Part shown: positions 10,000 to 44,528 of the stretch, in pieces
How positions within the stretch are numbered: position 1 is the first letter of the stretch
Layout: each line of letters opens with the position of its first letter
Assembly (NCBI GenBank): GCA_964446495.1
Contig: CAYUOY010000001.1
Location: forward strand, 17,735-81,734
From: an uncultured Woeseiaceae bacterium
Lineage (GTDB): Bacteria; Pseudomonadota; Gammaproteobacteria; Steroidobacterales; Woeseiaceae
Direction of reading: 5' to 3'
DNA: 64,000 bases
Program-made: the position numbers and the translations under genes
The notes under the pieces: model-generated
The model's input: the letters and a program-made list of their open reading frames with translations, nothing else
Told to the model about the DNA's origin: nothing
The model's database searches: none

Positions 10000-10034
10000 A
10001 GAGCGGCCTTCTTTGTAGCGACAAGGGTCCTGGT

Positions 10035-11511: not shown

Positions 11512-11745
11512 AGTGGCGATTCCATTGTCGCGTCATGAATAATTTCAGGCAATCCTGTCCGCAACAGGTGACTCCGATGAGCCGTTTTTCTCATAGCTAT
11601 GGCGGACAGTCAATCGAGATTTCGCCCGAGAAAAAAGCTTGCGAGGGCCGCGGGACCATTTTGAGCCACAGACCAGCCATTCCTTGGGCACGATACGCAA
11701 CAGCCGGCACACCGGGAGGCAGCAGGTCTGGCGCCGGAGCGTCCA

Positions 11746-25400: not shown

Positions 25401-25477
25401 CGGGCTGTGGCGCAGCCTGGTAGCGCATCTGTCTCGGGGTCAGAGGGTCGCAAGTTCGAATCTTGCCAGCCCGACCA
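25401..25477 (+). tRNA. tRNA-Pro (anticodon CGG)
   Basis: CGGGCTG acceptor stem pairs with CAGCCCG before ACCA. D arm GCGC/AGCCTGGTA/GCGC. Anticodon loop CTCGGGG. T arm GCAAG/TTCGAAT/CTTGC. Close to E. coli proK. Confidence 0.9.
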
Positions 25478-29293: not shown

Positions 29294-30916
29294 ATGCCAG
29301 CCGACGATCTGCCTGAAAAAGTCTATTCTCCCCAGGAACCCGAATCCGTCACCTCCGGGCGCGGCTTGCTGAGGTCGACTTCAGTGGTCAGCCTGATGAC
29401 TTTGCTCTCAAGAATCCTCGGGTTGGTGCGGGACATCGTCTTTGCGCGGTTTTTCGGTGCGACGATCGTCATGGACGCGTTCATAGTGGCGAACCGGATT
29501 CCGAACATGCTGCGGCGATTTTTTGCGGAGGGTGCGTTCTCGCAAGGATTCGTACCGGTGATGGCACGTTATCGCGAGAGTCACAGTCACGATGAGGCTC
29601 GAGAATTGGTCGATGCCGTAGCGGGGACACTTGGCCTCATTCTCTTTGTGATCACGGCCATCGGAGTGATTGCCGCTCCGTTGCTGGTTTTGATTGTGGC
29701 ACCCGGATTCACTGGCGATGACGGTCGATTCGAACTGGCCACTTTGATGCTACGTTTCACGTTTCCCTATCTATTTTTTGTTTCACTGACCGCTTTCGCC
29801 GGAGGGATTCTAAATACCTACGGGAAGTTTGCGGTGCCCGCCTTCACGCCGGTGATCCTGAATGCTGTACTGATCTCCTTCGCGGTATGGCTCGGGCCGT
29901 TGCTGGACGAACCTGGGATGGCGCTGGCGTATGGAGTCCTTGTCGCGGGCGTCGTACAACTCCTGTTTCAAGTGCCATTTCTTGCACGCATTCACGCCGT
30001 GCCAAGGCCGCGCTGGAATCCGGCCCACTCGGGTGTGCGGCGTATTGGCAAGCTAGTGTTACCAGCCATCTTTGGTTCATCTGTCGCACAGATCAATGTT
30101 CTGCTCGGCGGAATCATTGCCTCGCTGTTGGGGGTGGGAAAAATCAGCTTATTGTATTTTTCCGACCGGCTCATGGAGTTTCCGCTGGGTCTGTTTGGAA
30201 TCGCTCTTGCGACGGTCACCTTGCCGCATTTATCACGGCAATTCGCCGCAAAGTCTGAGCGGGGTTTCTCGAATACTGTTGATTGGTCGATGAAGTTAGT
30301 GGTTTTGGTGGCTGTGCCGGCTGCATTGGGGCTTATCGTAATGGCCGAGCCACTGGTGACCACGATTTTTTATGGCGGCGAATTCACCAAGCTCGATGTT
30401 CGTATGACCTCGCTGAGTCTGCAGGCTTTTTCCGTCGGCCTCGTTGGCTTCTCCTTCGTCAAAATTCTGGCACCCGCCTATTTCGCTCGCGAGGATACGC
30501 GCACTCCGGTGAAAATCGGCCTGATCGCACTATTGGTCAACTTCATATTAAGCGTAGTCCTGGCCTACGTATTGCAGCGGGCGGGGTATTTCGCCGCACA
30601 CGCAGGTCTCGCACTCGCGATTTCAGTGGCCGCGCTCTTAAACGCCTGGTTGTTGTATCGGGGTCTGCGTCGAGACGGCGTTGTTCATCATTCGCCTGGC
30701 TGGCGCACTATGTTGCTGAAATTCCTGGTGGCCAATATAGGCATGGTGGCTGCATTAGTGCTGCTAATGCGCCCACTTGGATGGTGGATAGAAGCTGGCA
30801 TACTGGACAGAGTCACCTGGGTCTTGTTGGAAACAGTGGTCGGTGCTGCTGTCTATTTTCTGACATTGTTCGCATTGGGTGTCAGAACATCGACGCTGCG
30901 ATTACGCACCGATTGA
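29294..30916 (+). CDS. murJ: lipid II flippase MurJ (MviN)
   Basis: ..LLSRILGLVRDIVFARFFGATIVMDAFIVANRIPNMLRRFFAEGAFSQGFVPV.. and ~14 TM segments. Confidence 0.9.
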   Translation: MPADDLPEKVYSPQEPESVTSGRGLLRSTSVVSLMTLLSRILGLVRDIVFARFFGATIVMDAFIVANRIPNMLRRFFAEGAFSQGFVPVMARYRESHSHDEARELVDAVAGTLGLILFVITAIGVIAAPLLVLIVAPGFTGDDGRFELATLMLRFTFPYLFFVSLTAFAGGILNTYGKFAVPAFTPVILNAVLISFAVWLGPLLDEPGMALAYGVLVAGVVQLLFQVPFLARIHAVPRPRWNPAHSGVRRIGKLVLPAIFGSSVAQINVLLGGIIASLLGVGKISLLYFSDRLMEFPLGLFGIALATVTLPHLSRQFAAKSERGFSNTVDWSMKLVVLVAVPAALGLIVMAEPLVTTIFYGGEFTKLDVRMTSLSLQAFSVGLVGFSFVKILAPAYFAREDTRTPVKIGLIALLVNFILSVVLAYVLQRAGYFAAHAGLALAISVAALLNAWLLYRGLRRDGVVHHSPGWRTMLLKFLVANIGMVAALVLLMRPLGWWIEAGILDRVTWVLLETVVGAAVYFLTLFALGVRTSTLRLRTD

Positions 30917-30930
30917 CCGGGACCGACACG

Positions 30931-31875
30931 ATGTATCTGGCACGGTCGAACCTGGCATTTCCGTTTACGCAAGTCTCCCAGGGCAGCGTGGTCACGATTG
31001 GCGCATTTGACGGCCTTCACCTGGGCCACCAGCGATTGCTGAATCGTGTTTTGGAGGAAGCGACCGCCCGCAAACTTCGGGCCGTCGTTATGAGTTTCGA
31101 GCCCACGCCCAAAGAGTTTTTCGCCGGTAAAAATCGATCCGCAAGATTAACCCGATTCCGCGAAAAGTATCTTCTGTTGAAGAATATGGGTTTTGACGTT
31201 TTCTTTTGTCCGCCATTCAATAGATCAATGAAAAGCATCACCGCCGATGCCTTCATCAGGACGCTGCTTGTACATGCATTGAACATTCGGCATCTGGTGA
31301 TTGGCGATGACTTCCAATTCGCGCGGAACCGCGAGGGAAACGTGGCGTTGTTGCGGCGCGCGGGCAAGGTGCTGAATTTTGGTGTTGAACAGATGGCGAG
31401 TGTCGTAGTGGAAGGGGAAAGGGTCAGCAGTACTGCGATTCGGGATGCATTGGGTCAGGGTGACCTGATACGTGCGCGCCGCTTACTTGGTGACAACTAC
31501 CAAATGGCGGGCAAGGTTATTCGTGATCCTGGCTATGCGGTTGACGAACGCATTGTATTTATCAGCACGCAGCGCCGACTTAGCCCGGTTGAGGGCATTT
31601 TTGCTGTTAAAGTGCACGGTATCGGCGAGAATGCACTGGGAGCTTCGGCTTGCATCGGCATGAATACTTCAATGGCGGCTCGCACGCCGTTTTTCACACT
31701 AGGTGGTATTGACGTCGAGCGGCTTTCGGACAGAGTTCATGTCAACATAGAATTCATGGCACGAATTAGAGGTCCGGAAGCGTGCAGAAGTATTGCAGAG
31801 GGCATTGCACAACTGCATGAATGCGAAAGCGAGGTTCAGCGTGTCCTGGCCGAGCGTGAACAGGACAGTTCTTGA
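30931..31875 (+). CDS. ribF: bifunctional-type riboflavin kinase/FAD synthetase; FMN adenylyltransferase domain intact, kinase domain motif-poor
   Basis: ATG 30931. VVTIGAFDGLHLGHQRLL and VSSTAIRDAL match the FMNAT domain of E. coli RibF. The C-terminal 130 aa keep the RibF scaffold (RRLSPVEGIFAVKVHGIGE..) but not the kinase motifs (see findings). The 530-aa track ORF is a 5' read-through over murJ. Confidence 0.85.
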   Translation: MYLARSNLAFPFTQVSQGSVVTIGAFDGLHLGHQRLLNRVLEEATARKLRAVVMSFEPTPKEFFAGKNRSARLTRFREKYLLLKNMGFDVFFCPPFNRSMKSITADAFIRTLLVHALNIRHLVIGDDFQFARNREGNVALLRRAGKVLNFGVEQMASVVVEGERVSSTAIRDALGQGDLIRARRLLGDNYQMAGKVIRDPGYAVDERIVFISTQRRLSPVEGIFAVKVHGIGENALGASACIGMNTSMAARTPFFTLGGIDVERLSDRVHVNIEFMARIRGPEACRSIAEGIAQLHECESEVQRVLAEREQDSS

Positions 31876-32402
31876 GGGGCGATGGTTTGAGTGACACCGT
31901 GAGCGAGAAAACGAGTCGCCGGATGCGGTTTGCATTGTGGGTGCTGTTGTCGGCAACGATTGCCGGACTAGATCAGTTGACTAAAATTGCCATTGTGAAA
32001 TGGGTGCCGCTTTACGACAAGATTCCGTTGGCATCTTTTGTCAATATTACGCATCAGCGAAATACCGGGGCGGCTTTCAGTTTCCTGGCCGATGCCGGCG
32101 GCTGGCAACGATGGTTTTTCTCGGTGCTGGCCGGAGTCGTCAGCGCTGTGATCTTCGTTTGGCTTTATCAGTTGCGACAGCAGAAGCAGATGGTTCTTGC
32201 CTCCGGACTGATTCTGATTCTCGGCGGCGCGGTAGGTAATCTGATCGATCGTATTCGATTGGGTTACGTGGTCGATTTCTTTCAGGTCTTGATCGCCGGG
32301 TGGCCATTTCCGTCTTTCAACGTGGCTGACGCCGCAATCACCGTTGGCGCCGGACTGATCATATTCGACTCGTTGTTTCTTTCCGGTAAAAAAGCCGTCT
32401 GA
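31872..32402 (+). CDS. lspA: lipoprotein signal peptidase (signal peptidase II)
   Basis: ..GLDQLTKIAIV..NITHQRNTGAAFSFLADAGGWQRWFF..LGGAVGNLIDR..VVDF..FPSFNVADAAITVGA.. is collinear with E. coli LspA. The TTG track start overlaps the ribF stop (TTGA). In-frame GTG 31899 and ATG 31923 are alternatives. Confidence 0.9.
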   Translation: MRGDGLSDTVSEKTSRRMRFALWVLLSATIAGLDQLTKIAIVKWVPLYDKIPLASFVNITHQRNTGAAFSFLADAGGWQRWFFSVLAGVVSAVIFVWLYQLRQQKQMVLASGLILILGGAVGNLIDRIRLGYVVDFFQVLIAGWPFPSFNVADAAITVGAGLIIFDSLFLSGKKAV

Positions 32403-32470: not shown

Positions 32471-32884
32471 CTACCGAGTTCGCGTCCAGCAATCCGCTAG
32501 TGGGGCCGATCCCTTCACCCCGGCGGCGGTAATCGTTAGAGACGCACATTTACCGGCTTCGTCACCGCCCAACAGGAAAGTTGCGGTCGCGGTATAGGTG
32601 TTTGCATTCGCGGGCGCAACAGAGATGCGGTAGGAACCGGTTTCGGTATCGAACGGACTTGCCTGGAAGCCAAGATCAGTCAGGTCGGTCGTGTAGCTGT
32701 TGTTGTTCAGGTAAAACCGCTCCTGATTGGTTGCCACCCGCAGCAAAGCCGCTCTCGCTTCGTTGCGTTTGGCGCGAGCCGCGAAATCACGATAGTTCGG
32801 GTAACCGACGGCGGCCAAAATACCAATGATGACAACAACAATCATCAACTCCATCAAGGTGATGCCGCTCATATATTTACGCAT
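32471..32884 (-). CDS. pilE: type IV pilin-like minor pilin PilE
   Basis: Prepilin N-terminus MRKYMSG/ITLMELMIVVVIIGILAAVGYPNY (Glu at +5). C-terminal Cys pair (..GKCASLTITAAGVKGSAPLADCW..). ATG 32884 is preceded by GGAG. Confidence 0.85.
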   Translation of the reverse strand: MRKYMSGITLMELMIVVVIIGILAAVGYPNYRDFAARAKRNEARAALLRVATNQERFYLNNNSYTTDLTDLGFQASPFDTETGSYRISVAPANANTYTATATFLLGGDEAGKCASLTITAAGVKGSAPLADCWTRTR

Positions 32885-32908
32885 TTTCGATCTCCGTCCA
32901 GGTAACAC

Positions 32909-35900
32909 CTAGTTGGTGCCGTCCTGGGTCCAAAGGGTTCTGACCGGATTGTTCGCATAACCCGGATTGAAACATTCTACACCGACACAGCCGATTGGCG
33001 GTGGTGCACATTCCTCGCCCTGACAATTCGGGTCTGTCGGACTCGGGAACAGGAACGACGGTCGCGGTGCAATGCCACCTTGCGCCAATTCTGTTACCCG
33101 TTCCTCATTTACCTGAACCGGATTATCCGGGTCAATCGTTTCCGACGGGTTAAACGGGTCGCCGGTTGCCGCATCCACGCGATACAAACGATTCAGGCTC
33201 AGACCAGCCTGGCACGGATCGGTAGATGCGATCATGGGTTCAAATGAGACAAAGAAAATCGAATCGTTAAAAGTCGTCGAATCGGATAGAATTTTTTCCC
33301 CGGGCGGCAGTGTCAGGCGCCAGCCACGATCATTGATGCCAACAACACTGTTAAGCACGCCGCTAACCTCAACCATATCGTTATTACCAGCAATTGGGTA
33401 ACTGTCATACTGAACCTGTGTCAGGCTGTGGAAGACATCGGTATCGCGCAAGGAGTAAAAACGATCGCCGGCACTCTTGTCCAGCGGATGAGCACGATAA
33501 CCACTGCCGATGCTGATAGCCAGATAACGGCTTTGACGATTCCTGTCACGTACCAGTGATACGTCCGGTGTAGTATAAAATCGGCGCGTTTGAGCAGGTG
33601 TTGGGCTTGATTGTCCTTCTGCGCCGAATTGTGCGATAACGCCGCCTCTAACTAATGTGTTGGGCGAGTTGCCGCTTAGAATATCAAAGCGCCACACCTG
33701 TCCACCAAGGTCCGCAGCGTACATTCTGTCGGCAAATCCATCTCCGCTGAGGTCCAGAACGCGAACTCTTGCAGGTATCGAGCGAGTCATGCTGGACAGG
33801 GTCAAATTGGCTCCGTTATCGGGACCTGCGCTCCAAACCTTGGCACCGGTCTCGATATCGAGCATGACTATGCCCGTTCCCTCGGCGTCGGCCGTTTGTG
33901 GGTGTGCCGCCTGATCGTGCACCGTGTCATAGCCCGCACCTAGTATTAGTACTGCATTGTCGACACTGGTTTGATAGGGGCTGTTTACCTTGACGCGTGC
34001 TGCAACCGGAGATGACCAGGTTTGTCCGAATTCCGGGTAGCTCTGGAGCCACTTGAATTTCGGCGCATTCTTGTCTGTTACGTCCAGTGCATAGTAGTTG
34101 TTGCCGCCGCGTCGCATGCCAAAAAACAGATAGACGAAGTCAGTCCCGACATCGATAACACCGTTGTTGTTTCTGTCGGCGACGACCGGCACGATATCCC
34201 CGTCGATTCCGTAGTGCTTGAAATTAATGTTTTCATTGAAATAGAGATCGGCCAGATCAGGCAACAATTCACGCGGAATGAAGGACCAGAGTTCGAGCCC
34301 ACTTTTGGCATCGATCGCGTGCAAGTATCCATCGTTGGTGGCGGTGAAGACGACAATGTCAGGGTCTCCATTCGCATCAGTGCCGTAGACGATTGACGCA
34401 GGCTGCGAATGCAGCGTATCCCCCATGATCTGTCGGGTGGTGGTCAAGGGATCGTTATCCTCGTCTTTCACGTCCGCACCGCGCGCCCATTCAATTAGTG
34501 TTGGCAAATCCGGCTCGCCCGGAGCACCCGACAAGCCCAAATCGGCCGGTGTGAATGCGGCAATATTTGCAGCAGATACACTATTGGAGCTGTCGGTGAG
34601 ACTGGTGGCACCATTGTTCGTGTAGAGTTTTCGCGAATCTGCGCTGGGCAGCAGATTGGCGGCTCCACCGACGTTTACATCAGGTCCATCCATATCACCG
34701 GCCACGTTCCAGAAATTGCTTGCCGAGTCGGCAAAGAAACCGGTATTCGGGTCGACGGCGGGGTTCGAATATTGATCGACGATCTCAGCATTGACGATGG
34801 TGTATTTCTTGATATTGCCTGGCCAATGTTGCTTGCTGGTCGCGCGAAATACAGAAACGTACAAATCATTCAGGTGCTGTGTACGGTTGAACGCATTCAC
34901 GGCAATCGAGGGTGCGGTGAAGGAAATATCGCGATCGAAAATGTTAGTGACAATATCAGTCAGCGCTTTCGTCAATGAAGTGACGTCTTCAGCCAGGTAG
35001 TACTTACCCCCGGAATTCTCGGCAGTTGCCTTCAATAGAGGTAAATCGACCGTGAAGCCAATCGTGTAGGTGGTGACATTCTGGTTTCCGGGAACATTTG
35101 CGTTGATGTCTGTCTTCGACAGGTACTCGGAAATATCGTCAAGACAGGCACCATTCACGTTGCCGCCGGTACAACTGCTGCGACCCATTGTTGCCGTAAA
35201 ATTGGGCAGACTGCTCACCCTGCCGTAAGCGCCGGTATCCTGGGTTGGCTGTCCGTCTGTCAGCAGGACCGTAAAGTTCTTGGCGCAGGCGTATTCTGCC
35301 GGTTGTTTGTACATGCCGTTGTTGCCGACAACCAGCGCATCCGGATCGGTCGAGGACAACGCACCGTATTGCCTGCTAACGCCGTTCCAATACCGTGCCG
35401 CTTCGTACATGGTTTCTGACAGCGGCGTCCAGCCGCTTGCCGGTAGTGAATCGACCACTGAGTTCGCTTCGCTTCTGTTGGTATCGAGGTCCTTCAAGGC
35501 CATCATGACCGGACCGCCTTCGTTGTTGTGAAAACGCATGAAGCCGATGTTCACATTGTTTATACCGCCCAGGACATTCTTGGTTACCGCTTTGACGATA
35601 TCCGTGCGCCGCATGCTGCTTCCAGGGGGATTGTAAAACCAGTTCAGGTAATTCGAATCGTAAACCGTGACGATTTGATGCGTTGGCGAGGAGCCCCAAT
35701 CGACTTCGGCGCTCGAAACTGATGTGAAGAGACTGCCGGTATTTGAGCCGATTTTGGCGTAAACCTGGCCAGCCGTGCCATCACCGTGAACGCCGGAATC
35801 GGCGGCGCACTCGACATAACTTTGCGTTTTACTTCTCGAAATCGTCTGCCATTTCCATTTGCCGCGGCGTTTGCGGTACTGTGCCATGGTGTCGGTGTAT

Positions 35901-36259
35901 GAACCGGCATCGCTTATCTGGGTAACACCCTGATCGCAAACGAAATAGGATTTTTCAAATCGCCTTAATTTGCTGCCGGTACAACTGGGCAAGTTTGAGT
36001 TTTTTGACCAGTAGTAATAGCCATTGTCGCAGGCACCGGAATAAGTCTTGTTTTTGTCAAAAGGTTCCTGACTAACTTCGACAGACGTCATACTGCCCGA
36101 ACTGTCCAGAATGAACAGGACGTTCGGTTTTGCAGCTACACTGGCACCGGGTACTGACAAAAGCAGCTCGACATCCTCCGCCCAGGCGGGTGCGCCGGCC
36201 AAAAATGCGATTGTCAGTCCAACACCAGCCCAAGCGGTGTGTAATCTGGACTTTCTCAC
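32909..36259 (-). CDS. pilY1: PilY1-family pilus tip adhesin/biogenesis protein, copy B (vWA domain + PilC/PilY1 beta-propeller)
   Basis: GTG start after AAGGA. Signal peptide ..AGAPAWA/ED. vWA MIDAS motifs NVLFILDSSGSMT and FTVLLTDGQPTQD. C-terminal propeller with ..FFGMRRGGNNYYALDVT.. and EF-hand-like DLSGDGFAD followed by ..LGGQVWRFD. Confidence 0.9.
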   Translation of the reverse strand: MRKSRLHTAWAGVGLTIAFLAGAPAWAEDVELLLSVPGASVAAKPNVLFILDSSGSMTSVEVSQEPFDKNKTYSGACDNGYYYWSKNSNLPSCTGSKLRRFEKSYFVCDQGVTQISDAGSYTDTMAQYRKRRGKWKWQTISRSKTQSYVECAADSGVHGDGTAGQVYAKIGSNTGSLFTSVSSAEVDWGSSPTHQIVTVYDSNYLNWFYNPPGSSMRRTDIVKAVTKNVLGGINNVNIGFMRFHNNEGGPVMMALKDLDTNRSEANSVVDSLPASGWTPLSETMYEAARYWNGVSRQYGALSSTDPDALVVGNNGMYKQPAEYACAKNFTVLLTDGQPTQDTGAYGRVSSLPNFTATMGRSSCTGGNVNGACLDDISEYLSKTDINANVPGNQNVTTYTIGFTVDLPLLKATAENSGGKYYLAEDVTSLTKALTDIVTNIFDRDISFTAPSIAVNAFNRTQHLNDLYVSVFRATSKQHWPGNIKKYTIVNAEIVDQYSNPAVDPNTGFFADSASNFWNVAGDMDGPDVNVGGAANLLPSADSRKLYTNNGATSLTDSSNSVSAANIAAFTPADLGLSGAPGEPDLPTLIEWARGADVKDEDNDPLTTTRQIMGDTLHSQPASIVYGTDANGDPDIVVFTATNDGYLHAIDAKSGLELWSFIPRELLPDLADLYFNENINFKHYGIDGDIVPVVADRNNNGVIDVGTDFVYLFFGMRRGGNNYYALDVTDKNAPKFKWLQSYPEFGQTWSSPVAARVKVNSPYQTSVDNAVLILGAGYDTVHDQAAHPQTADAEGTGIVMLDIETGAKVWSAGPDNGANLTLSSMTRSIPARVRVLDLSGDGFADRMYAADLGGQVWRFDILSGNSPNTLVRGGVIAQFGAEGQSSPTPAQTRRFYTTPDVSLVRDRNRQSRYLAISIGSGYRAHPLDKSAGDRFYSLRDTDVFHSLTQVQYDSYPIAGNNDMVEVSGVLNSVVGINDRGWRLTLPPGEKILSDSTTFNDSIFFVSFEPMIASTDPCQAGLSLNRLYRVDAATGDPFNPSETIDPDNPVQVNEERVTELAQGGIAPRPSFLFPSPTDPNCQGEECAPPPIGCVGVECFNPGYANNPVRTLWTQDGTN

Positions 36260-36300
36260 GTTTCCTTACCTCAAGTTAGATCAATCCGTGACCCTATCGC

Positions 36301-36639
36301 TCAATTAGCTACTTCTATGCTGCGTACGGTATTGGTCTCTGTATCAATGAGAATCAGTGCATAGCCATCGCGACTATGCCGGCCATTGTTGAAACCTTGC
36401 CTGAAATCGGCAAGCTTCATAGCCGTGCCATTCAGGGAATAGACTGTCGTCGGCGTCAGACGAGCTGTCACGTATTCACAATCCTCACAGGATTTGAATG
36501 AAAGCCGGCTATTGACACTTGTTGGTACATTGAGGAATGAAGGATCTGTTTCGATCGCATCAACCAGTGTACGAATCTCGGCGTGTGCCAATGTGCCTGC
36601 ACATAAAAAGGCAATAACCGCGCACCTTAAAAGTCTCAT
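36301..36639 (-). CDS. small exported CxxC protein encoded immediately upstream of pilY1 copy B (uncharacterised)
   Basis: ATG 36639. Signal peptide MRLLRCAVIAFLCAGTLAHA/EIR. Mature ~92 aa with SRLSFKSCEDCEY. Homologous to the ORF at 40126-40467. Confidence 0.65.
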   Translation of the reverse strand: MRLLRCAVIAFLCAGTLAHAEIRTLVDAIETDPSFLNVPTSVNSRLSFKSCEDCEYVTARLTPTTVYSLNGTAMKLADFRQGFNNGRHSRDGYALILIDTETNTVRSIEVAN

Positions 36640-36742
36640 TGTCACTGTTCCACCATTTCCCTGTTGCAAAAATCCAAATTCCATTTGGCGTAGTTCTGCG
36701 ACTCACATCATCGGTTATTGCCGGCTTCCTGGCGAGGAACTG

Positions 36743-39700
36743 CTACTCAATTCCATCCTGTGTCCACAAAGTTCGGACCGGATTATTGGCAAATCCTGGT
36801 TCATTACACTCGACACCAATACACAGGATTGGCGGTGGTGAGCATGCGGCACCGGTACAATTTGATTCCGGACTGGGGAAAAGAATGGTCGGCGATGGCG
36901 CGATACCACCTTGTGCCAGTGTCGTGCGGCGAGCGATGTCTTCGTCACCCGGAGCGATTGAGTCAAGGTTGTTGACGACAGGATCCCCGTTGACCACTTT
37001 GACGCGATAGAGGAAGTTCGTCCCGCGTCCCGCGGAACAGCTTGCAGCAGCCAGCGTATCCGGTGTGAAGGAGACAAAGAAAACTTCATCGTCAAACGTA
37101 ACCGAATCAGCCAGAACTTTCTGATTTCCCGGGAGGGTGAATTTCCAGCCAGCCATACCTGAGCCCACGACGACTTCTGTTTGTCCACTGATTTCAACCA
37201 GGTCGGAATCAGTAATAACAGTGTAGCTATCGTATTCACTCTGATTGAGCTGGTTGAACACGTTGGGATCTCTTATCGAGAAAAATCGATCGGAAGCAGT
37301 GAGGTCGAACGGACGTGCCCGATAGCCTGAACCGATGCTGATCGAAATGTAACGCCGCCCCTGTTGCGGATCAGAGAATATTGAAAGATCAGGAGCGCTG
37401 TAAAATCGACGGGTGTCGGCCGCGCCCGGCGCTCCGAGTCCTTCGGCACCTACTTGTGCAATGACACCACCGTTTACAAGGTTGGCAGGAGTGGCACCTT
37501 TAACGATATCAAAGCGCCAAATCTGACCGCCCAGATCCGAGGTGTACATGCGATCGGCGAAATTATCACCATTCATATCGGCCACGCGAATCTGATTTGG
37601 CATCGCCCTCGTCATAGCGGTGAATTGCTTGGTTGTGCCACTGGAACTAGCGCCTCCATTCCACAGCGTTGCGCCGGATTCGAGGTCCAGAATGTGAATG
37701 CCGGCACCGACCGCGTCGGCGGTTACCGGGTGACCCGAGGTGTCATGAACGGTGTCATAACCGCCACCAATTACTACGACTGCTTTGTCGCTGTTGAGGC
37801 CGGAATCATTGATATCCATGCGAGCGACAACCGGTGTTGACCAGCTTTCACCCGCGTTGGCAAGTGTACGTGTCCAGAGAAGATCCGGTGAATTCTTGTC
37901 GGTGACGTCCAGGGCGTAATACGTTGTGCCACCGCGGCGCATGCCGAACAATATACGGACGAAGTCCCCATCGCTGGATTCAATTACGCCATCTTTGTCC
38001 ACGTCCTTAACGATAGGAACAATGTTGCCATCCAGTCCGTATTGCTTGAATTTGGCACTCGGGTCGAAAAAGAGTCGCGTCATATTGCTCAGTAACTGTT
38101 TTGGCACAAATGACCACAACTCCACGCCGGTCGTACCGTTGATGGCATGCAAATATCCGTCATTGGTCGCTGTGTAGACGACAACATCCGGATTAGCAGC
38201 GGTGCCACCGTAAACCACGGCGGCAGGTTGGGAATGCAACGGATCGCCCATGGCAAACCGTTGAGTGGTCGCCGGATTTCCGTCCTCGTCGCGCACATCT
38301 TCGCCACGCATCCAGCGGATGATGTCGCTTTTGCTGGGTTCACCGGTTGCGCCAGTCAAACCGAAATCGGCGTCCGTAAACGCCATCGCGTTACCGGTCG
38401 TAATTGCGTTGGTGCCGCCAGCCAGATTAACGCTGACGCCATTGTTGGTGAACAAATTACGGCTTGAAAAGTTGGGTAGAACGTTGGCAGCACCACCCAG
38501 ACGTACATCCGATCCGTCATTGGCCCCAGCCGTCCAGATGCTGCGGGCGGAGTCGAAAAAGAAACCCGTGAGGGGGTCAACGGCCGGCAGGTCGTTGTCA
38601 TCTACAATAACCCCGTCGGAAATTCCGTATTTTTTCAGGTTTCCTGGCCAGTGAGCTTTGCCTCTGGCACCGAACATAGTCAGGTACAAGTCATTCAGGT
38701 TTCGCGTACGATTAAATGTGTTCACCGAAACTGCTGGTGCGGAAAATGACAGGGAACGATCGTTGATTTCACCGACGATGCGCAATAGCGCAATAGTCAG
38801 GCTCTCAACATCATCTGCGAGAAAGTAGCTCCCGCCGGATGCGATTGCAGTATTTCTAAGGATATCCAGATCGACCGAAAAACCGATCGTATGAGTGACT
38901 ACCGTTTGATTGCCATCCAGTGCGGTATTGGTATCCACTTTGCCGAGATATTCTGCGATATCGTCCAGGCATTGCCCCTGGCCTGAGCCATTACAAGAGC
39001 TCCGGCCGAGAACTGACGTAAAATTGGGCAGGGTCGGCGCACGCACGGGCCCATCGTCGTCCTGGGTGGGTGCTCCATCTGTCAGAAGGACGTTGAAGTT
39101 CTTGGCACAGGAATCGAGTGTCGGGCTCTGATATACCTCGGGTCCGGTTGAAAAGAGAGCGCCCGGATCGGTTGTGTATTCACTAACTTGTTCGCCGTAC
39201 CACGCCGGCGCGCCTGTCCAATAAAGCGCATTTTCGTACAGGGTCTCTGACAGTGGCGTCCAGCCATTGGCGTCGAGTCCGTCAATCGTGTCCAGAATGA
39301 CCTGGCGATTCGTGTCCAGGTCGGTTAGCCCAAGGAGGACCGGGCCACCCTGAGTCTGGTTGAATCGCATGACGCCGACATTCAGGTTGTTGATCGAATC
39401 AAGTACCTTCGTCGTCACGATTTTCATGATTTGCGTACGACTGAGTGAGATAGTGTTAGGCGAGCTCTTCCAGTTCAAATAATTGCCGTCGAAGACGGTA
39501 TACGAAAGGTTTCTCGGCGCGCTACCCCAGGATAATTCCTGAGTAGAGTCGCTGGTCCAGGGAGTCGCACCGGATGCGCTCGCCGCATAGACTTCTCCGG
39601 GTGTGCCATCGCCATGAGTTCCTCGGTCAGCCCTGCACTCTACAGAGTTGGAATTGTCACCGGGCTCCAGATACTGCCAAGAGGTTGCCCCGGTTCCGGC

Positions 39701-40090
39701 ATCACGATACTGGACCATGGTATCGGTGTAACTACCAATACCCGAGAGCTGCCGCGCCGCAAACTCGCACTGAAATGAGTTCTTGGCGATGAATTGTGTT
39801 TCGTTACCGTCGCAGACCGGCAATGTATCCACATCGGTCCAGAACAGGGCGCCGGCATCACAACTGCCGGGATAGGGTACGGCACTGTCATACGGTTCGA
39901 CGGTCGTTTCGTTCGAGTTCATGCTGCCGGACGTATCCAGGATGAACATCACGTTCGGCTTCGGGTTCAACGAAGGGTCCGGGTTGATCAACAGCAATTC
40001 GGTATCGTCAGCTATTGCCGGCGTGCCGAGCAACAGCGTCAGAGAGCAACTGAGACTCATCCATGTGGTTTTTCTTGCAGAGATCATCAT
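36743..40090 (-). CDS. pilY1: PilY1-family pilus tip adhesin/biogenesis protein, copy A (vWA domain + PilC/PilY1 beta-propeller)
   Basis: Signal peptide ..LLGTPAIA/DD. NVMFILDTSGSMN and FNVLLTDGAPTQD. ..FGMRRGGTTYYALDVT.., DMNGDNFAD ..LGGQIWRFD. Collinear over its full length with copy B, including the shared C-terminus ..ANNPVRTLWTQDG. Confidence 0.9.
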   Translation of the reverse strand: MMISARKTTWMSLSCSLTLLLGTPAIADDTELLLINPDPSLNPKPNVMFILDTSGSMNSNETTVEPYDSAVPYPGSCDAGALFWTDVDTLPVCDGNETQFIAKNSFQCEFAARQLSGIGSYTDTMVQYRDAGTGATSWQYLEPGDNSNSVECRADRGTHGDGTPGEVYAASASGATPWTSDSTQELSWGSAPRNLSYTVFDGNYLNWKSSPNTISLSRTQIMKIVTTKVLDSINNLNVGVMRFNQTQGGPVLLGLTDLDTNRQVILDTIDGLDANGWTPLSETLYENALYWTGAPAWYGEQVSEYTTDPGALFSTGPEVYQSPTLDSCAKNFNVLLTDGAPTQDDDGPVRAPTLPNFTSVLGRSSCNGSGQGQCLDDIAEYLGKVDTNTALDGNQTVVTHTIGFSVDLDILRNTAIASGGSYFLADDVESLTIALLRIVGEINDRSLSFSAPAVSVNTFNRTRNLNDLYLTMFGARGKAHWPGNLKKYGISDGVIVDDNDLPAVDPLTGFFFDSARSIWTAGANDGSDVRLGGAANVLPNFSSRNLFTNNGVSVNLAGGTNAITTGNAMAFTDADFGLTGATGEPSKSDIIRWMRGEDVRDEDGNPATTQRFAMGDPLHSQPAAVVYGGTAANPDVVVYTATNDGYLHAINGTTGVELWSFVPKQLLSNMTRLFFDPSAKFKQYGLDGNIVPIVKDVDKDGVIESSDGDFVRILFGMRRGGTTYYALDVTDKNSPDLLWTRTLANAGESWSTPVVARMDINDSGLNSDKAVVVIGGGYDTVHDTSGHPVTADAVGAGIHILDLESGATLWNGGASSSGTTKQFTAMTRAMPNQIRVADMNGDNFADRMYTSDLGGQIWRFDIVKGATPANLVNGGVIAQVGAEGLGAPGAADTRRFYSAPDLSIFSDPQQGRRYISISIGSGYRARPFDLTASDRFFSIRDPNVFNQLNQSEYDSYTVITDSDLVEISGQTEVVVGSGMAGWKFTLPGNQKVLADSVTFDDEVFFVSFTPDTLAAASCSAGRGTNFLYRVKVVNGDPVVNNLDSIAPGDEDIARRTTLAQGGIAPSPTILFPSPESNCTGAACSPPPILCIGVECNEPGFANNPVRTLWTQDGIE

Positions 40091-40125
40091 GATTCTCCCT
40101 TAATTCAGCGGTCGGTTCGACGTAT

Positions 40126-40467
40126 CTAAAGTGTTATCGACACGGATGTAATCGTGTCTGATTCAAGATTGCGCAGGACAATAATCATTTCATGATTACG
40201 ATTGCGAACAGTGGCAAGCATCTTTCGAAAATCGCTCAATTCCATTGGCGAATTATTGCGCAGGTAGCGGGTCTCGCTGGTTACGCGATAGGAGTGCGTA
40301 ACGCATCCGGTACACTCACTGAATGACAGTACGCCGTTGCTGCTTGCTGGCATACGAAATTCACTCAGCGCTACTTCGTGCGCCAGATCAATCGTGTCGA
40401 AGTCGGCGCCCGCCGGCAGACTGAATACGAGGGCGATGCTAAGTATCAGTGTTCTGTATTTGGTCAT
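40126..40467 (-). CDS. small exported CxxC protein encoded immediately upstream of pilY1 copy A (uncharacterised)
   Basis: ATG 40467. Signal peptide MTKYRTLILSIALVFSLPAGA/DFD. GVLSFSECTGCVTH..MELSDFRK.. parallels SRLSFKSCEDCEY..MKLADFRQ.. of the other copy. Confidence 0.65.
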   Translation of the reverse strand: MTKYRTLILSIALVFSLPAGADFDTIDLAHEVALSEFRMPASSNGVLSFSECTGCVTHSYRVTSETRYLRNNSPMELSDFRKMLATVRNRNHEMIIVLRNLESDTITSVSITL

Positions 40468-40504
40468 TGGTCTTACTCCCAATCCCTGGTGATTCGGTTG
40501 ATAT

Positions 40505-40978
40505 CTAAAGAGTCTGGTCCTCAGGACCGACTACATAAAAAGCTTGTGAGTGGACCGCAGAAGCGTCGCGATCTGTCGTGCCACCACCGCCTGCAATTCG
40601 TCGTGACACGGCCGTCGATGTTGAATTGAAATGGTAGGCAGCAATGCCACTGCCAACGCCCAGGCTAAACGCCCGATCGGGCACCATCGTGGCATCCTCA
40701 AAGACGATGACCGCCGTATAAGATTCGTTTGCATTGACATTCTGGGTCAACGTAACGTTATTCAGTGTGTCAAATTGCCCTTGTGCAATCGATTGCTCCA
40801 GACCTGTCTCTGCGGCCTGAAAAGCATTTTCGTTATTCTGGTCATTACGCGCCATGGCAATTTCAGTGGTAGCAGTATTCATACCCGAAATGGCGAGCAC
40901 CGTAATAACGACCAGCAAAATAAGGCCTACAACCAGTGCGGCACCATTCTGTGTTCGTTTTAAAGGGTATTTTTTCAT
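40505..40978 (-). CDS. pilX: type IV pilus minor pilin/assembly protein PilX
   Basis: MKKYPLKRTQNGAALVVGLILLVVITVLAISGMNTATTEIAMARN.., a PilX-type N-terminus lacking Glu5. Position between pilW and pilY1. Confidence 0.8.
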   Translation of the reverse strand: MKKYPLKRTQNGAALVVGLILLVVITVLAISGMNTATTEIAMARNDQNNENAFQAAETGLEQSIAQGQFDTLNNVTLTQNVNANESYTAVIVFEDATMVPDRAFSLGVGSGIAAYHFNSTSTAVSRRIAGGGGTTDRDASAVHSQAFYVVGPEDQTL

Positions 40979-41000: not shown

Positions 41001-42002
41001 TTAAGATCTGGCGTTACGCAACAGTATGGTCTTCGATACGATCAGACGTCGAAACTCATCGTTCGGTACGCCGAGACCTACGTCTCCTGGAGTGTAATCA
41101 GTTGTATCCACGATTCCGGTTTCCACTGAAATCGAACGAACGACCAGCCAAACTCGTGCGGTCATCACTCTGGCGGTTGGCACCCAGCCGGCGTTGGCGG
41201 GGTTAAGCACCGGGTCGCCCGGGTTTACGTAACGATCGACGGTATTGTCGCCGTCCATGTCAACGCCGAACTGTATCTGCATGTTCTCAACACCGGGTGC
41301 GACTTCAATATCGGTAATTTGCGGCGCACCGCCACTGACACCGAGTGTTTTTCGACGTAAAGTCGGCACGCCCGGGATCAACGTTGAGCTGGCGGCGACG
41401 TAGTAGGAGTTGATGAGTAAGTTGTGAGTTTCCGATGTCAGTGCATCAAACCCGGGCGGTATCTGGCCGTCGTCCATAATTTGACCTTGCAGGCGCGTCG
41501 ACTGAATCTGTAGTCGTCCCTCACCGGGCACGAGAGCCGCCGCGAATACACTTGCCCGTCGCGTCGTCACTGTGTCGGAATTTGCTTGCGCACCACCGGC
41601 CCCGGTTGCCGCACAAGTCAATGCGTAGGCATTGTTGTCACCTTCAATCGGCCGAGTCAGGTCGAGTATCCAGTCAGCACCGCAACTGTTGTCCAGTGTC
41701 AGTCCGTAAGGATTGTTGTCCCCATTTATCGACCGGCCTTCAACCGTGTCGCCACGACTGTTTCGACCAAAATTGCTGGCCATGCGCAGGTCGGCCTCAA
41801 TGGTATCCATCGCGAATTGTGCCGTTTCCTGCACGCGTGCGATGGAGTCATTGATAATGTAGGCGTGACGACTCTGACTGTATATCTGGACTGAACCAAC
41901 CATCAGAAATGAGCCAATGGCGAGTGACACCATGAGTTCTATCAGCGTGAGGCCGGCCATGCGGCGGTACGATGTGTGCTTTCGAAGCTGCCTGCTATTC
42001 AT
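41001..42002 (-). CDS. pilW: type IV pilus minor pilin PilW
   Basis: ..RRMAG/LTLIELMVSLAIGSFLMVGSVQIY..ARVQETAQFAMDTIEADLRMA... The size (333 aa) and position are typical of PilW. Confidence 0.85.
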   Translation of the reverse strand: MNSRQLRKHTSYRRMAGLTLIELMVSLAIGSFLMVGSVQIYSQSRHAYIINDSIARVQETAQFAMDTIEADLRMASNFGRNSRGDTVEGRSINGDNNPYGLTLDNSCGADWILDLTRPIEGDNNAYALTCAATGAGGAQANSDTVTTRRASVFAAALVPGEGRLQIQSTRLQGQIMDDGQIPPGFDALTSETHNLLINSYYVAASSTLIPGVPTLRRKTLGVSGGAPQITDIEVAPGVENMQIQFGVDMDGDNTVDRYVNPGDPVLNPANAGWVPTARVMTARVWLVVRSISVETGIVDTTDYTPGDVGLGVPNDEFRRLIVSKTILLRNARS

Positions 42003-42005: not shown

Positions 42006-42500
42006 TTATATTCCAAAGACCGGGATGGTGATTCGGTATTGTGGTGGAGGATTCTGCCCCGCCTCAGTCCAGGCAATGGTGATCTGATAGGTGTTTGGCA
42101 CAACCGCATTGTCCAGGACAATATTTACGGTACCACCGGGCAAAGTGTCGCCGGCCTGCAATGCCCACAGGAAGATATCCTGTTGAGCCATCTCCGCCGG
42201 CGTGCAATCAATGCCGCCATTGACACAGTTGTTGTCGACTCCACCGACGACATAGCCGGCACCGGCGCGCGGATTCGCGCGAATGCGATCAGCAACATCT
42301 CCGGCCAGCGTGACAGCGTGATGTCGAAACAATGACGTTCGACCGGCTTGCATCGTGTGCACGTAAAGACCGGCGATCCCGAGCATTCCTACCGACATGA
42401 TGACCAGCGCTATCAGGACTTCGACAAGCGAAAAGCCAGCCGCTGATTTCTTGATGCATTTGATTCGATTCAATTTCACTGCTCTGCTCTCAAATTTCAT
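42006..42500 (-). CDS. pilV: type IV pilus minor pilin PilV
   Basis: ..KKSAAG/FSLVEVLIALVIMSVGMLGIAGL... ATG 42500 was chosen; the track start at 42521 is TTG directly abutting the fimU stop. Confidence 0.8.
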   Translation of the reverse strand: MKFESRAVKLNRIKCIKKSAAGFSLVEVLIALVIMSVGMLGIAGLYVHTMQAGRTSLFRHHAVTLAGDVADRIRANPRAGAGYVVGGVDNNCVNGGIDCTPAEMAQQDIFLWALQAGDTLPGGTVNIVLDNAVVPNTYQITIAWTEAGQNPPPQYRITIPVFGI

Positions 42501-42521
42501 TTGCAGGAATAGGGTTGCCAA

Positions 42522-43115
42522 CTACGGGCAACCTCCTTGTGCGTCAATCTGGTCTTTGTCTCGCAGAACCGTGGCACGACCAATTGGCGTAATGATCAAA
42601 ACTCTGGCCGCGGAATCGTTGGCGCCCACCACAACCACGTTGCCGCGGTCGTCACAAATTCGTGCCGCCGATAGCGCTGTTCCATTGACATTGCCGCGCC
42701 CGAGACCGGTCCCTGCAAAACTGAAGTAGGTGGCACCACCGTTAGTTACTATGTTCAGTCCGGTATCGATGGCGGGAAAAGCCTTTAGAACATTTTCAGT
42801 CGCAACATCGCGTGCTGCCGCCGGAGCATTGATGTCAGCGAATATGATCCAGCCATCATCGAAGGTGCCATCACAAGCTGCGGCGGCGGTCATTGGTGCC
42901 AGGCTGCCGCAAATCGTAATGTTGTTCTTGGATCTGGCCGCTTCAGAGCGCGCCAGGTACAAGCTCGAATGGAGATCATTGGCCGTCGCTGTAACGCGAC
43001 TGTTCTGTGTGAAAGCGGTGAGGTTTGGCAGACCAAGGCCCAGAACCACGCCTGCAATCAACATCGTGATCAGCAATTCGTAGAGTGTGAAGCCGTTCTG
43101 GTATCGATTTTTCAT
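42522..43115 (-). CDS. fimU: GspH/FimT-family minor pilin FimU
   Basis: MKNRYQNG/FTLYELLITMLIAGVVLGLGLPNLTAFTQNSRVTATANDLHSSLYLARSEA.. First gene of the co-directional block fimU-pilV-pilW-pilX. Confidence 0.8.
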   Translation of the reverse strand: MKNRYQNGFTLYELLITMLIAGVVLGLGLPNLTAFTQNSRVTATANDLHSSLYLARSEAARSKNNITICGSLAPMTAAAACDGTFDDGWIIFADINAPAAARDVATENVLKAFPAIDTGLNIVTNGGATYFSFAGTGLGRGNVNGTALSAARICDDRGNVVVVGANDSAARVLIITPIGRATVLRDKDQIDAQGGCP

Positions 43116-43212: not shown

Positions 43213-43752
43213 TTAACGCGCACATTGGTAGGCCTTGCCGCGGGTATTCTTGCGGGCAACGCGGGGCCTACCGGTATAACTGATCACAACGGCCCGTGAT
43301 TCTGCCCGGTTGCTACGATCGCATATCGTCAGCGTGCCGTTGGTTGCGCGCAAATGCGTGGAACGAAACGAGAACGCCGCCCTGTTTGACCGAATTTGTG
43401 CTGTGGCGCCGACCTTGTGATGGCTAATAAGTGTTTCACTGTCATTCCGCAAGGCCAACCCGGTACGCCCCCTGTTGACGAATACGATCCAGCCTTGCGA
43501 CCAATCCCCCTCCGGGTCGCAGTAGCGAGCGTCAGCGCTCGGACAGATGGTGACGACGCGCCGCCGTACAATAGATTCCTGACGGGCCCTGTGAACCGCG
43601 TGAAAGAGGGCGGTAGACTCGACGAGGAGGCGTTTATCGGCGGCGAGATGACCGAAAGAGGGCACGCCCAGGCCGAGAATAATGGCTGCGAGCCCCAGTG
43701 TCATGATCAATTCATAAAGGCTGTAGCCCATCTGCCGGTACCGTTGATTCAT
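43213..43752 (-). CDS. fimT: GspH/FimT-family minor pilin FimT
   Basis: ATG 43752 preceded by GGGAGG. MNQRYRQMG/YSLYELIMTLGLAAIILGLGVPSFGHLAADKRL... Basic C-terminal tail ..YTGRPRVARKNTRGKAYQCAR. Confidence 0.8.
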   Translation of the reverse strand: MNQRYRQMGYSLYELIMTLGLAAIILGLGVPSFGHLAADKRLLVESTALFHAVHRARQESIVRRRVVTICPSADARYCDPEGDWSQGWIVFVNRGRTGLALRNDSETLISHHKVGATAQIRSNRAAFSFRSTHLRATNGTLTICDRSNRAESRAVVISYTGRPRVARKNTRGKAYQCAR

Positions 43753-43853
43753 CGCGAACCTCCCTGTCCAAGAAGGTGAGGTTACTGCAGAGAGGAAACC
43801 CGGCAGCGTATAGAAACAGGGGAAAACGAGGCATTTTGCTGACCATCGGGCCA

Positions 43854-43869
43854 AATGAGAACGATTTTC
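43854..43869 (+). promoter_or_regulatory. possible Fur-box-like operator upstream of the fur-family gene
   Basis: AATGAGAACGATTTTC versus the consensus core AATGATAATCATTATC (12 of 16 positions), ~45 bp upstream of ATG 43911. Confidence 0.3.
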
Positions 43870-43910
43870 GCTTATACTGCCAGATTGGACTCAATCTAAA
43901 GGATCTGCCG

Positions 43911-44318
43911 ATGTCTCGATCGGACATTCAGGCCCGAATGGACAAATTCGGAATCGCAGCAACGCCACAACGGCTTGAAGTTGCAGGCGTTCTCCTGGAG
44001 AAACCACAGCATTTGGCCGCGGACCAGATCCTCGCCACGCTACGGAAAAATGGCAGCCGGGTATCCAAAGCCACGGTTTACAACACCCTGCATCTGTTTG
44101 CTGAAAAAGGGTTGGTGCGGGCGCTGAACGTGGATCCAAGCCGCACCTTTTATGATTCTACGACCCACCCGCACCACCATTTTTACCATGTAGGCATGCG
44201 TGAACTGAGTGACATTCCCGATGAGCAGATTCGAATCCTTGATCTGCCGCCGTTGCCGAAGGGCACGGAATTGGAGAATGTCGAAGTCCTCGTGAAAATT
44301 CGCGACAGACAGATCTAG
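43911..44318 (+). CDS. Fur-family transcriptional regulator lacking the CxxC structural-zinc motifs (Irr-like or Cys-less Fur type)
   Basis: MSRSDIQARMDKFGIAATPQRLEVAGVLLEKPQHLAADQILATL....VSKATVYNTLHLFAEKGLV (winged helix). Histidine cluster THPHHHFYHV where Fur has HHHDHLIC. No cysteine in the protein. Confidence 0.75.
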   Translation: MSRSDIQARMDKFGIAATPQRLEVAGVLLEKPQHLAADQILATLRKNGSRVSKATVYNTLHLFAEKGLVRALNVDPSRTFYDSTTHPHHHFYHVGMRELSDIPDEQIRILDLPPLPKGTELENVEVLVKIRDRQI

Positions 44319-44452: not shown

Positions 44453-44528
44453 GCCGGTATAGCTCAGTTGGTAGAGCGCCACATTCGTAATGTGGAAGTC
44501 AGGTGTTCGAATCACCTTACCGGCACCA
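44453..44528 (+). tRNA. tRNA-Thr (anticodon CGT)
   Basis: GCCGGTA acceptor stem pairs with TACCGGC before ACCA. D arm GCTC/AGTTGGTA/GAGC. Anticodon stem CCACA/TGTGG with loop TTCGTAA. T arm AGGTG/TTCGAAT/CACCT. Confidence 0.9.

Follow-up and report, generated by a model that had tools for sequence, protein, structure and literature searches.

Small exported proteins encoded ahead of each of two PilY1 genes in a Woeseiaceae minor-pilin operon form an undescribed family with a probable PilY1-accessory role

Type IVa pili carry at their tip the adhesin PilY1, which also senses surfaces and acts as a priming factor. The window analyzed here, meaning the whole stretch of 64,000 nucleotides from an uncultured Woeseiaceae bacterium, carries two pilY1 genes within one minor-pilin operon, each directly preceded by a small gene, which raises the question of what these small proteins (here termed minis) are and what they do for the adhesins encoded behind them. 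The open reading frame (ORF) list gives the order fimT-fimU-pilV-pilW-pilX, mini-A, PilY1-A, mini-B, PilY1-B, pilE on the minus strand (Table 1), in agreement with an earlier sequence-only reading of this DNA that placed two mini-PilY1 units between pilX and pilE. The tight spacing seen in that reading also stands, although its figures of 36 to 42 bp become 35 nt (A) and 41 nt (B) from mini stop to PilY1 start. In addition, pilE begins (32908) at the base right after the PilY1-B stop (32909), leaving no room for a pilY2 gene, so that a small gene lies ahead of each pilY1 and none follows the last, as had been proposed. Two of the minor pilins of the operon match GspH (Pfam), and in related loci a FUR gene (PF01475) adjoins the operon at the position of the fur-like gene, a conserved neighbor that we regard as context only. 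A promoter and terminator scan of the operon gave chance-level results, with no site in any intergenic gap.

Table 1. Coordinates of the operon genes and associated features within the window.
Feature	Position	Strand	Description
pilE-like minor pilin	32471-32908	-	ORF and Pfam (PilE/ComP)
PilY1-B	32909-36259	-	1116 aa, type 2; architecture as in PilY1-A
mini-B	36301-36639	-	112 aa, exported; type-2 member of the family of mini-A
PilY1-A	36743-40090	-	1115 aa, type 1; signal peptide, vWA domain with MIDAS, C-terminal propeller, conserved tail
PilY1-A vWA insert	39476-39907 (approximate)	-	~145 aa, residues about 62-205
mini-A	40126-40467	-	113 aa, exported; type-1 member of an unnamed PilY1-linked family
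pilX	40505-40978	-	ORF and Pfam (PilX_N); stop 37 nt upstream of mini-A start
pilW	41001-42002	-	ORF and Pfam (PilW); in the same operon as the minis
pilV	42006-42521	-	Tt1218-like pilin fold (Pfam); true start probably later than the listed ORF start
fimU-like	42522-43115	-	ORF and Pfam
fimT-like	43213-43854	-	ORF and Pfam; true start probably later than the listed ORF start
fur-like gene	43776-44318	+	Divergent from the operon; named by synteny, ORF only

The two large genes encode PilY1/PilC tip adhesins, as seen from their propeller, calcium loop, vWA domain with MIDAS, and position in a minor-pilin operon. Both score above the cutoff for the PF05567 propeller and match the Pseudomonas aeruginosa PilY1 structure 3HX6 (E 4e-13), while the NCBIfam PilC model is matched only weakly (E 0.0077). 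They are collinear over their full length at 52% identity, bearing out the view of them as well-diverged copies. The MIDAS elements (DxSGS, Thr and LLTDG) are conserved in both and in all partner PilY1s of related loci, with DTSGS of PilY1-A at 39923-39937. The calcium loop of PilY1-A, DMNGDNFAD (37553-37579), aligns with DNNSDGVAD of P. aeruginosa, and its pattern Dx[NS]GDxxAD is kept in 15/15 relatives. The C-terminal PVRTLWTQDG shared by both proteins is likewise conserved in relatives, so the MIDAS, LLTDG, propeller and common end noted earlier are all present. The vWA domain of PilY1-A is split just after DxSGS by an insert with four conserved Cys, because of which the VWA Pfam matches of the window PilY1s are weak, split and below the cutoff. 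According to the divergence profile, this insert is among the regions that differ most between type-1 and type-2 PilY1s.

The small genes are somewhat shorter than their listed ORFs (40126-40482, 118 aa, for mini-A and 36301-36684, 127 aa, for mini-B). The most likely starts are ATG 40467, with GGGAG ahead, for mini-A (113 aa), and ATG 36639, with GGTGGA ahead, for mini-B (112 aa), and the proteins so obtained have exact counterparts in the database, P0001 and P0008, respectively. Comparison of mini-A with a relative at 84% identity in locus L005 gives a dN/dS of 0.19, which shows that the minis are real genes under purifying selection. The two minis are homologous to each other, as first noted from sequence alone (31% identity over 108 aa, E 9e-13). 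Their predicted signal peptides end in ..PAGA|DFD (mini-A) and ..LAHA|EIR (mini-B), both AxA sites, and across the family the Ala residues of this site are 84 to 85% conserved, in line with the cleavable Sec signal peptides proposed earlier. Neither a lipobox nor a pilin signal is found in the family.

An exhaustive profile search recovers 768 clusters (hundreds of clusters at 50% identity), all of about 112 aa, and mini-A matches the family profile at E 4.5e-39. No Pfam or NCBIfam assignment was obtained for the two window minis, nor any Pfam assignment for 69 members scanned at E 1, and the source names read "hypothetical" throughout. The minis thus represent a real, large and unnamed family that was hitherto undescribed, as the sequence-only reading had suspected. 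Named loci from a genome-collection scan with a narrower alignment number three, all of them Woeseiaceae metagenome-assembled genomes (MAGs), so the taxonomic breadth of the family is poorly defined. One Glu is invariant (241/241 members), as is a Cys pair, whose spacing is Cx2C (148 members) or Cx3C (98). In mini-A the pair (Cys52 and Cys55, codons within 40303-40314) reads CTGCV, and in mini-B (Cys51 and Cys54, 36478-36489) CEDCE. The residue after the second Cys is Asp or Glu in 76% of members and His in none of 240. We rejected an origin of the minis by fission of a PilY1 gene, since the mini profile matches no PilY1 ORF.

AlphaFold2 (AF2) models of the minis (pLDDT 83.8 for mini-A and 88.8 for mini-B) predict a small, beta-rich protein of seven beta strands and one helix, with the Cys pair in a loop between two strands. 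Foldseek searches with both models found no relative of this fold in the PDB. A first run pointed to an OB-fold (best probability 0.97, TM 0.44, E 0.06), but the second, better model did not reproduce this lead (best E 0.15), and we therefore assign no fold to the minis. A PDB sequence search with the family profile gave chance-level matches only, to a RIG-I CTD zinc knuckle (E 1.1) and TRIM29 (E 1.7). The conserved Cys pair is most likely a structural disulfide that staples a beta-hairpin, and contact with a partner is a candidate role for the invariant Glu.

Several known families can be set aside. The minis are not c-type cytochromes, as the lack of any cytochrome Pfam match, of CxxCH, and of a largely helical model indicates; here the earlier exclusion of c-type heme proteins holds. 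Nor are they minor pilins: all neighboring pilins match the N_methyl Pfam model and the minis do not, carrying a cleavable AxA signal peptide. Weak matches to ExbD/TolR (PF02472; 7/69 members, best E 0.004) fade in hhalign, where the E. coli sequences gave probabilities of 0.2% (ExbD) and 9.5% (TolR).

What the family does share is its neighborhood. All 25 nonredundant minis (17 genomic contexts) are encoded 2 to 86 bp upstream of a PilY1 ORF and in its orientation, in keeping with the linkage anticipated earlier, with the qualification that most of these loci were fetched via the mini itself, so that the sample carries an ascertainment bias. An independent retrieval with P. aeruginosa PilY1 gave 80 PilY1 loci, of which only one holds a mini, and it precedes a second, window-type PilY1. 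In two loci the mini and PilY1 stand apart from minor-pilin genes: in L013 the pair is alone, far from any minor pilins, and in L014 obg and rpsT flank the inserted pair, with 2 nt from mini stop to PilY1 start. Where two tandem minor-pilin sets occur (L100), the mini is found only in the set that contains PilY1. The single window-type PilY1 that has no mini, L075, is likewise devoid of the vWA insert, a link between mini and insert that depends on this one negative case. The double mini-PilY1 unit is present in eight genomes, at a locus GC of 54 to 63%, and the mini and PilY1 trees show a matching deep split into types 1 and 2. The pair was therefore duplicated long ago as a unit and has been kept as a pair, as the sequence-only reading had held. 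Segment-wise mirror-tree correlation of the minis with PilY1 regions singled out no region.

The closest functional parallel is TfcP of Myxococcus xanthus, whose gene lies immediately upstream of pilY1.1 and is conserved only with that PilY1 type (PMC13190605). TfcP, a periplasmic factor, is absent from pili and stabilizes PilY1.1 (PMC8833165). Like TfcP, the minis are predicted to be small soluble periplasmic proteins, with genes directly upstream of one PilY1 type in a minor-pilin cluster. However, TfcP is a heme-binding cytochrome c with CxxCH, and the minis show no homology to it and never have His after the Cys pair. By analogy, a similar role is likely for the minis, which have the gene position and the Sec signal peptide in common with TfcP. 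A different parallel is offered by PilC1 and PilC2 of Neisseria, two diverged PilY1-family paralogues that coexist in one genome with a single minor-pilin set, as do the window PilY1s. To our knowledge, these two lie apart as single genes and neither has a small partner of its own, whereas the window paralogues are in tandem inside the operon, each with its own partner gene.

In every genome examined the mini lies directly ahead of a window-type pilY1, and it is thus most likely a dedicated helper of that adhesin. We consider it probable, on the strength of gene linkage, that the mini works in the periplasm as an accessory factor reserved for the cognate PilY1 encoded downstream. The stand-alone pairs argue for this, as they show the mini and PilY1 moving as a unit, and so do the restriction of the mini to the PilY1-containing set of L100, the matching tree split, the one independently fetched locus with a mini, the joint absence of mini and insert in L075, the Sec signal peptide with its AxA site, the purifying selection, and the TfcP precedent. 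We count against it the indifference of the mirror-tree correlations to any PilY1 region, the ascertainment bias, the dependence on L075 as a single case, and the fact that the genome-collection scan named Woeseiaceae MAGs only. Mechanistically, mini and PilY1 would be coproduced from the minor-pilin operon and exported via the Sec pathway, and the mature mini, soluble in the periplasm and about 90 residues long once its signal peptide is removed, would bind its cognate PilY1 there. As a guess, the two may meet at the N-terminal vWA region of PilY1, where the Cys-containing insert lies beside the MIDAS. Binding would preserve the stability of PilY1, or its competence for assembly, up to its docking on the FimU-PilV-PilW-PilX priming complex, possibly through the C-terminal tail common to both PilY1s. 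Duplication of the whole pair in an ancestor has given two cognate mini-PilY1 pairs served by one common minor-pilin set, and perhaps two alternative tip complexes.

Instead of acting transiently, the minis might just as well remain attached at the tip of the pilus. A stronger version, in which the mini is a stable structural co-subunit that accompanies PilY1 out of the cell and takes part in adhesion or gates it, for instance with the invariant Glu serving as a MIDAS pseudo-ligand in the vWA domain until the tip meets a surface, appears to us unlikely. In its favor are the strict 1:1 gene pairing at spacings down to 2 nt, the Glu and the usually acidic residue after the second Cys, the fully conserved MIDAS of all partner PilY1s, and the fact that the minis and the MIDAS-adjacent insert are the most diverged parts between types. 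It sits poorly with the absence from pili of TfcP, the only characterized analogue, and with the mirror-tree analysis, which does not favor the insert. Less likely still is its most specific form, an obligate, type-specific PilY1 co-subunit with a so far unseen fold that would use its Glu to cap the vWA MIDAS and would come off, or rearrange, once the pilus tip is exposed.

The sequence-only reading had instead suggested a disulfide or metal chaperone for a Cys-rich N-terminal half of PilY1 with about 14 Cys. That count was wrong: 12 Cys are conserved overall, 7 in the N-terminal half and 5 between residues 1018 and 1095. The odd number in each half, along with the invariant mini Cys pair, would suit a thiol-disulfide or metal chaperone whose CxxC oxidizes, isomerizes or metallates PilY1 Cys, but we consider such a role improbable, given the non-thioredoxin predicted fold with its Cys pair between beta strands, the absence of Dsb or thioredoxin matches in Foldseek and Pfam, the variable spacing of two or three residues, unusual for a redox-active CxxC, and the fact that two Cys alone make no complete metal site. 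We give very little credence to a diverged, relocated PilY2 or an operon passenger with a function unrelated to PilY1. PilY2 is indeed a beta-rich, exported nonpilin of about 100 to 115 aa whose function is poorly understood and whose gene adjoins pilY1 in the same type of operon, and hhalign joins the last, C-terminal beta strand of both families (11 columns, probability 66%). Its gene, however, lies downstream of pilY1 and before pilE (fimU-pilVWXY1Y2E), opposite to the minis; it has no conserved Cys pair, and each family accompanies a different PilY1 clade. The PilY2 model PF14481 matched neither window mini at E 0.1 and 0/69 members at E 1, versus 13/14 small pilY1-pilE ORFs (best E 5e-31) from Pseudomonas-like relatives (up to 74% identity) obtained by metagenome scan, with downstream ORFs identified by Pfam, so the earlier distinction from PilY2 is upheld. 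A passenger role is contradicted by the stand-alone pairs and by co-duplication.

If the minis are indeed accessory factors of PilY1, they add to a short list, as we know of no characterized dedicated periplasmic PilY1 helper other than TfcP, and PilY2 is still an obscure protein. Another helper family, not related to the first, would point to a common need of PilY1 proteins for partners of their own. The family of the minis is large, keeps strictly to a single PilY1 clade and was duplicated along with it. With 90 residues, one invariant Glu and one Cys pair, the mini offers a concrete target for studying the periplasmic handling of vWA-propeller adhesins. Capping of the MIDAS, if true, would make the mini a new component of the type IV pilus tip and provide Woeseiaceae-like bacteria with two tip adhesins, both switchable, on a single minor-pilin platform. 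Woeseiaceae rank with the most abundant bacteria in marine sediments, and since the taxonomically named relatives all belong to this family, the finding bears on how these bacteria attach to particles.

Within a type IVa minor-pilin operon on the minus strand of the window, two small exported proteins, mini-A and mini-B, are each encoded upstream of their own pilY1 (table). The sequence-only reading had described this arrangement as a duplicated mini and PilY1 module, and ORFs, Pfam and pairwise identities confirm it: the minis share 31% identity (E 9e-13), and PilY1-A (1115 aa) and PilY1-B (1116 aa), both assigned by Pfam to the PilY1 propeller family PF05567, are collinear at 52% identity. 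The pilin assignments are likewise backed by Pfam. The likely ATG of mini-A lies behind GGGAG and yields a 113-aa product identical to database protein P0001, and that of mini-B lies behind GGTGGA and yields 112 aa, identical to P0008. Spacing is 37 nt from pilX to mini-A, 35 nt from mini-A to PilY1-A, 103 nt from PilY1-A to mini-B, 41 nt from mini-B to PilY1-B, and 0 nt from PilY1-B to pilE. In none of the gaps did a consensus scan place a promoter or terminator, and its counts were at chance level.

Features of the minor-pilin operon in the window
Feature	Position in window	Strand	Basis or remark
fimT-like	43213-43854	minus	ORF, Pfam
fimU-like	42522-43115	minus	ORF, Pfam
pilV	42006-42521	minus	ORF, Pfam
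pilW	41001-42002	minus	ORF, Pfam
pilX	40505-40978	minus	ORF, Pfam
mini-A	ORF 40126-40482; likely start ATG 40467	minus	ORF
PilY1-A	36743-40090	minus	ORF, Pfam PF05567
vWA insert, PilY1-A residues about 62-205	39476-39907		equivalent part also in PilY1-B
mini-B	ORF 36301-36684; likely start ATG 36639	minus	ORF
PilY1-B	32909-36259	minus	ORF, Pfam PF05567
pilE	32471-32908	minus	ORF, Pfam

A fur-family regulator gene, in the window named by synteny (43776-44318, plus strand), is always divergent from, and adjoining, the first gene of the operon in this lineage, with the same adjacency in the related loci L001, L002, L005, L009, L011, L016, L018, L099, and L100, pointing to possible metal-dependent regulation of the operon. 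Immediately downstream of fur is tRNA-Thr(CGU) (44453-44528), which together with tRNA-Pro(CGG) (25401-25477) makes up the only Rfam/ARAGORN matches in the window. On the other side, lspA (31872-32402) comes immediately after ribF, the ribF stop overlapping the lspA start (30283-32402), without the ileS that usually lies between them in Gammaproteobacteria. This adjacency is also seen in most related loci showing that flank; in L011 and L012, lspA is directly beside murJ with no intervening ribF.

The linkage of the mini family to a single PilY1 clade, the window-type PilY1s, is strict and specific. We obtained loci through mini relatives and scanned them with the mini family HMM; with near-identical contigs collapsed and L091 of an independent set included, this gave 25 mini genes in 17 genomic contexts with a GC content of 54 to 67%. 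All 25 lie on the same strand as, and 2-86 nt upstream of, a PilY1 ORF, in a census biased by the retrieval of most loci via the mini itself; the adjacency that the sequence-only reading had proposed to check thus holds throughout. The order mini-PilY1-mini-PilY1 is found in eight contexts (the window, L006, L007, L009, L011, L018, L099, and L101), whose visible flanks are as in the window, with fur at one end and lspA, ribF, murJ, rpsT, and obg at the opposite end, and L002 and L016 carry a single unit within the operon. Pairs also occur elsewhere: L014 has an extra one (8001-11728) flanked by obg and rpsT, not far from the PilY1 and pilE of the operon itself, and that of L013 (8001-11760) is distant from any minor pilin, beside unrelated genes. 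The L013 PilY1 frame is broken into 1013 aa and 91 aa, which may reflect a frameshift, a pseudogene, or misassembly. In L100 (2092-12215), two minor-pilin sets stand in tandem, one composed of fimT, pilV, pilW, pilX, and pilE without PilY1 or mini, the other with both; because only the PilY1-bearing set has a mini, the mini follows PilY1 and not pilX.

Neighbor-joining trees built for the minis and for PilY1 residues 1-700 have an identical deepest split. Every first-position unit falls into type 1 together with the lone unit of L002, and type 2 takes in every second-position unit, the lone L016 unit, and the L013 and L014 pairs that stand by themselves. Duplication of the pair therefore predates the divergence of these genomes, and the mini family has been co-duplicated and co-relocated with its PilY1 clade. 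Cognate partners have remained together ever since, with lineages later retaining one type or both.

Neither mini has a match in Pfam or NCBIfam, and word-indexed searches recover few close relatives. A HMMER profile run exhaustively against 1.84 billion cluster representatives returned 768 proteins at E <=1e-3, 219 of them at E <=1e-10; of the 150 mini relatives among the matches listed, nearly all are 100-130 aa long, and where a source name is given it is "hypothetical protein." Scanned against Pfam, 69 diverse members pointed to no consistent family, and we found no published description, which bears out the earlier suggestion of an undescribed family. A scan of a species-level genome collection returned three mini loci, the sole ones to carry an informative taxonomic label, all in Woeseiaceae MAGs, and the scope of the family as established is Woeseiaceae-like Pseudomonadota. 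The family is exported and under purifying selection: the signal-peptidase site AxA is 84-85% conserved, and comparison of mini-A with its L005 relative (84% identical) gives a dN/dS of 0.19, so the reading frame is constrained. Across 241 full-length members, three residues are invariant, one Glu and the two Cys (E31, C52, and C55, mini-A numbering), followed by P40 (98%), T66 (95%), and F80 (94%). Two residues separate the Cys in 148 members and three in 98, and the position following the second Cys is occupied by Asp or Glu in 76% and by His in none.

AlphaFold2 models of mini-A (from 10 sequences, pLDDT 83.8) and mini-B (from 80 sequences, pLDDT 88.8) share a topology past the signal peptide of five short beta strands, one helix, and two longer strands, with the Cys pair in the loop joining strands 2 and 3. 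Foldseek searches of the PDB gave no significant match to either model (best E 0.018 and 0.15, TM <=0.44), and comparing the family profile with PDB sequences yielded chance-level matches only; no known fold is therefore assigned. A weak OB-fold likeness in the first of the two Foldseek runs did not recur in the second. We also rejected a c-type cytochrome or TfcP, in line with the earlier reading (no CxxCH, no cytochrome domain, a beta-rich predicted fold); a Dsb/thioredoxin protein (wrong fold, Cys pair in a beta-hairpin loop, variable spacing); a pilin (no class III signal peptide); and ExbD/TolR, whose weak Pfam matches were unconfirmed by hhalign.

In the PilY1s, the sequence-only reading had counted about 14 Cys in the N-terminal half, which proved wrong: 12 are conserved overall, seven in that half and five at residues 1018-1095. 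In PilY1-A these five (window about 36806-37039) fall within the last 100 residues, with a C-x4-C...C-x4-C pattern just ahead of the invariant PVRTLWTQDG tail. The odd number in each half is suggestive of either a long-range disulfide or a free thiol. Against the P. aeruginosa PilY1 structure 3HX6, the PilY1-A propeller gives a match at E 4e-13; the propeller loop DMNGDNFAD lines up with DNNSDGVAD of 3HX6, which we take to be the calcium site. In 15 of 15 mini-linked PilY1s, the vWA domain is interrupted after the MIDAS DxSGS by an insert of ~145 residues carrying four conserved Cys. A second, window-type PilY1 in L075 (13269-16292), a locus of the independent PilY1 set, is without a mini and has a contiguous vWA domain; this single negative case suggests that the mini goes together with the insert. 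Types 1 and 2 diverge most at residues 101-200 and 1001-1050 and least at the extreme C-terminus, PVRTLWTQDG, consistent with a possible shared docking end on a single minor-pilin set.

We infer from this genomic evidence that the mini is probably a dedicated accessory factor of its cognate PilY1, and it would serve, in the periplasm, the PilY1 encoded by its own pair. The closest functional precedent is TfcP, likewise a small gene immediately upstream of a pilY1, pilY1.1 (PMC13190605); TfcP is a periplasmic protein that promotes calcium binding by PilY1.1, thereby stabilizing it, and it does not occur in pili (PMC8833165), but unlike TfcP the minis have neither CxxCH nor a cytochrome domain. 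A stable tip co-subunit or a MIDAS cap acting through the invariant Glu seems unlikely to us. Segment-wise mirror-tree analysis located no PilY1 binding region for the mini. The redox or metal chaperone proposed earlier, including its disulfide-chaperone form, is less probable still, as the predicted fold and the variable Cys spacing speak against it; the simplest reading of the Cys pair is a structural disulfide.

That the mini is a diverged PilY2 or a mere hitchhiker we regard as very improbable. A metagenome scan with a 200-aa P. aeruginosa PilY1 stretch from the 3HX6 alignment gave 80 PilY1 loci at 43-74% identity, 17 of which encode another small exported protein between pilY1 and pilE. 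Among 14 of these proteins that were aligned and scanned, 13 match PF14481 (Fimbrial_PilY2; E down to 5e-31). The minis, located upstream of pilY1 rather than between pilY1 and pilE, do not match PF14481, and profile-profile comparison with PilY2 aligned just 11 columns; they are therefore not PilY2. The mini HMM matches one of the 80 loci, L091, where the mini lies within a second minor-pilin cluster, ahead of a 1136-aa window-type PilY1. This high-GC genome (L091 5064-16627) carries a Pseudomonas-type PilY1 (1469 aa, no mini) adjacent to the mini/window-type cluster, and in its window-type PilY1 a further EF-hand-like motif lies around residue 1056-1070.

The general kind, a pilY1-adjacent gene for a private periplasmic helper, is already known; what is new here is the mini protein family, the fold predicted for it, and the arrangement of cognate pairs in tandem within one operon.
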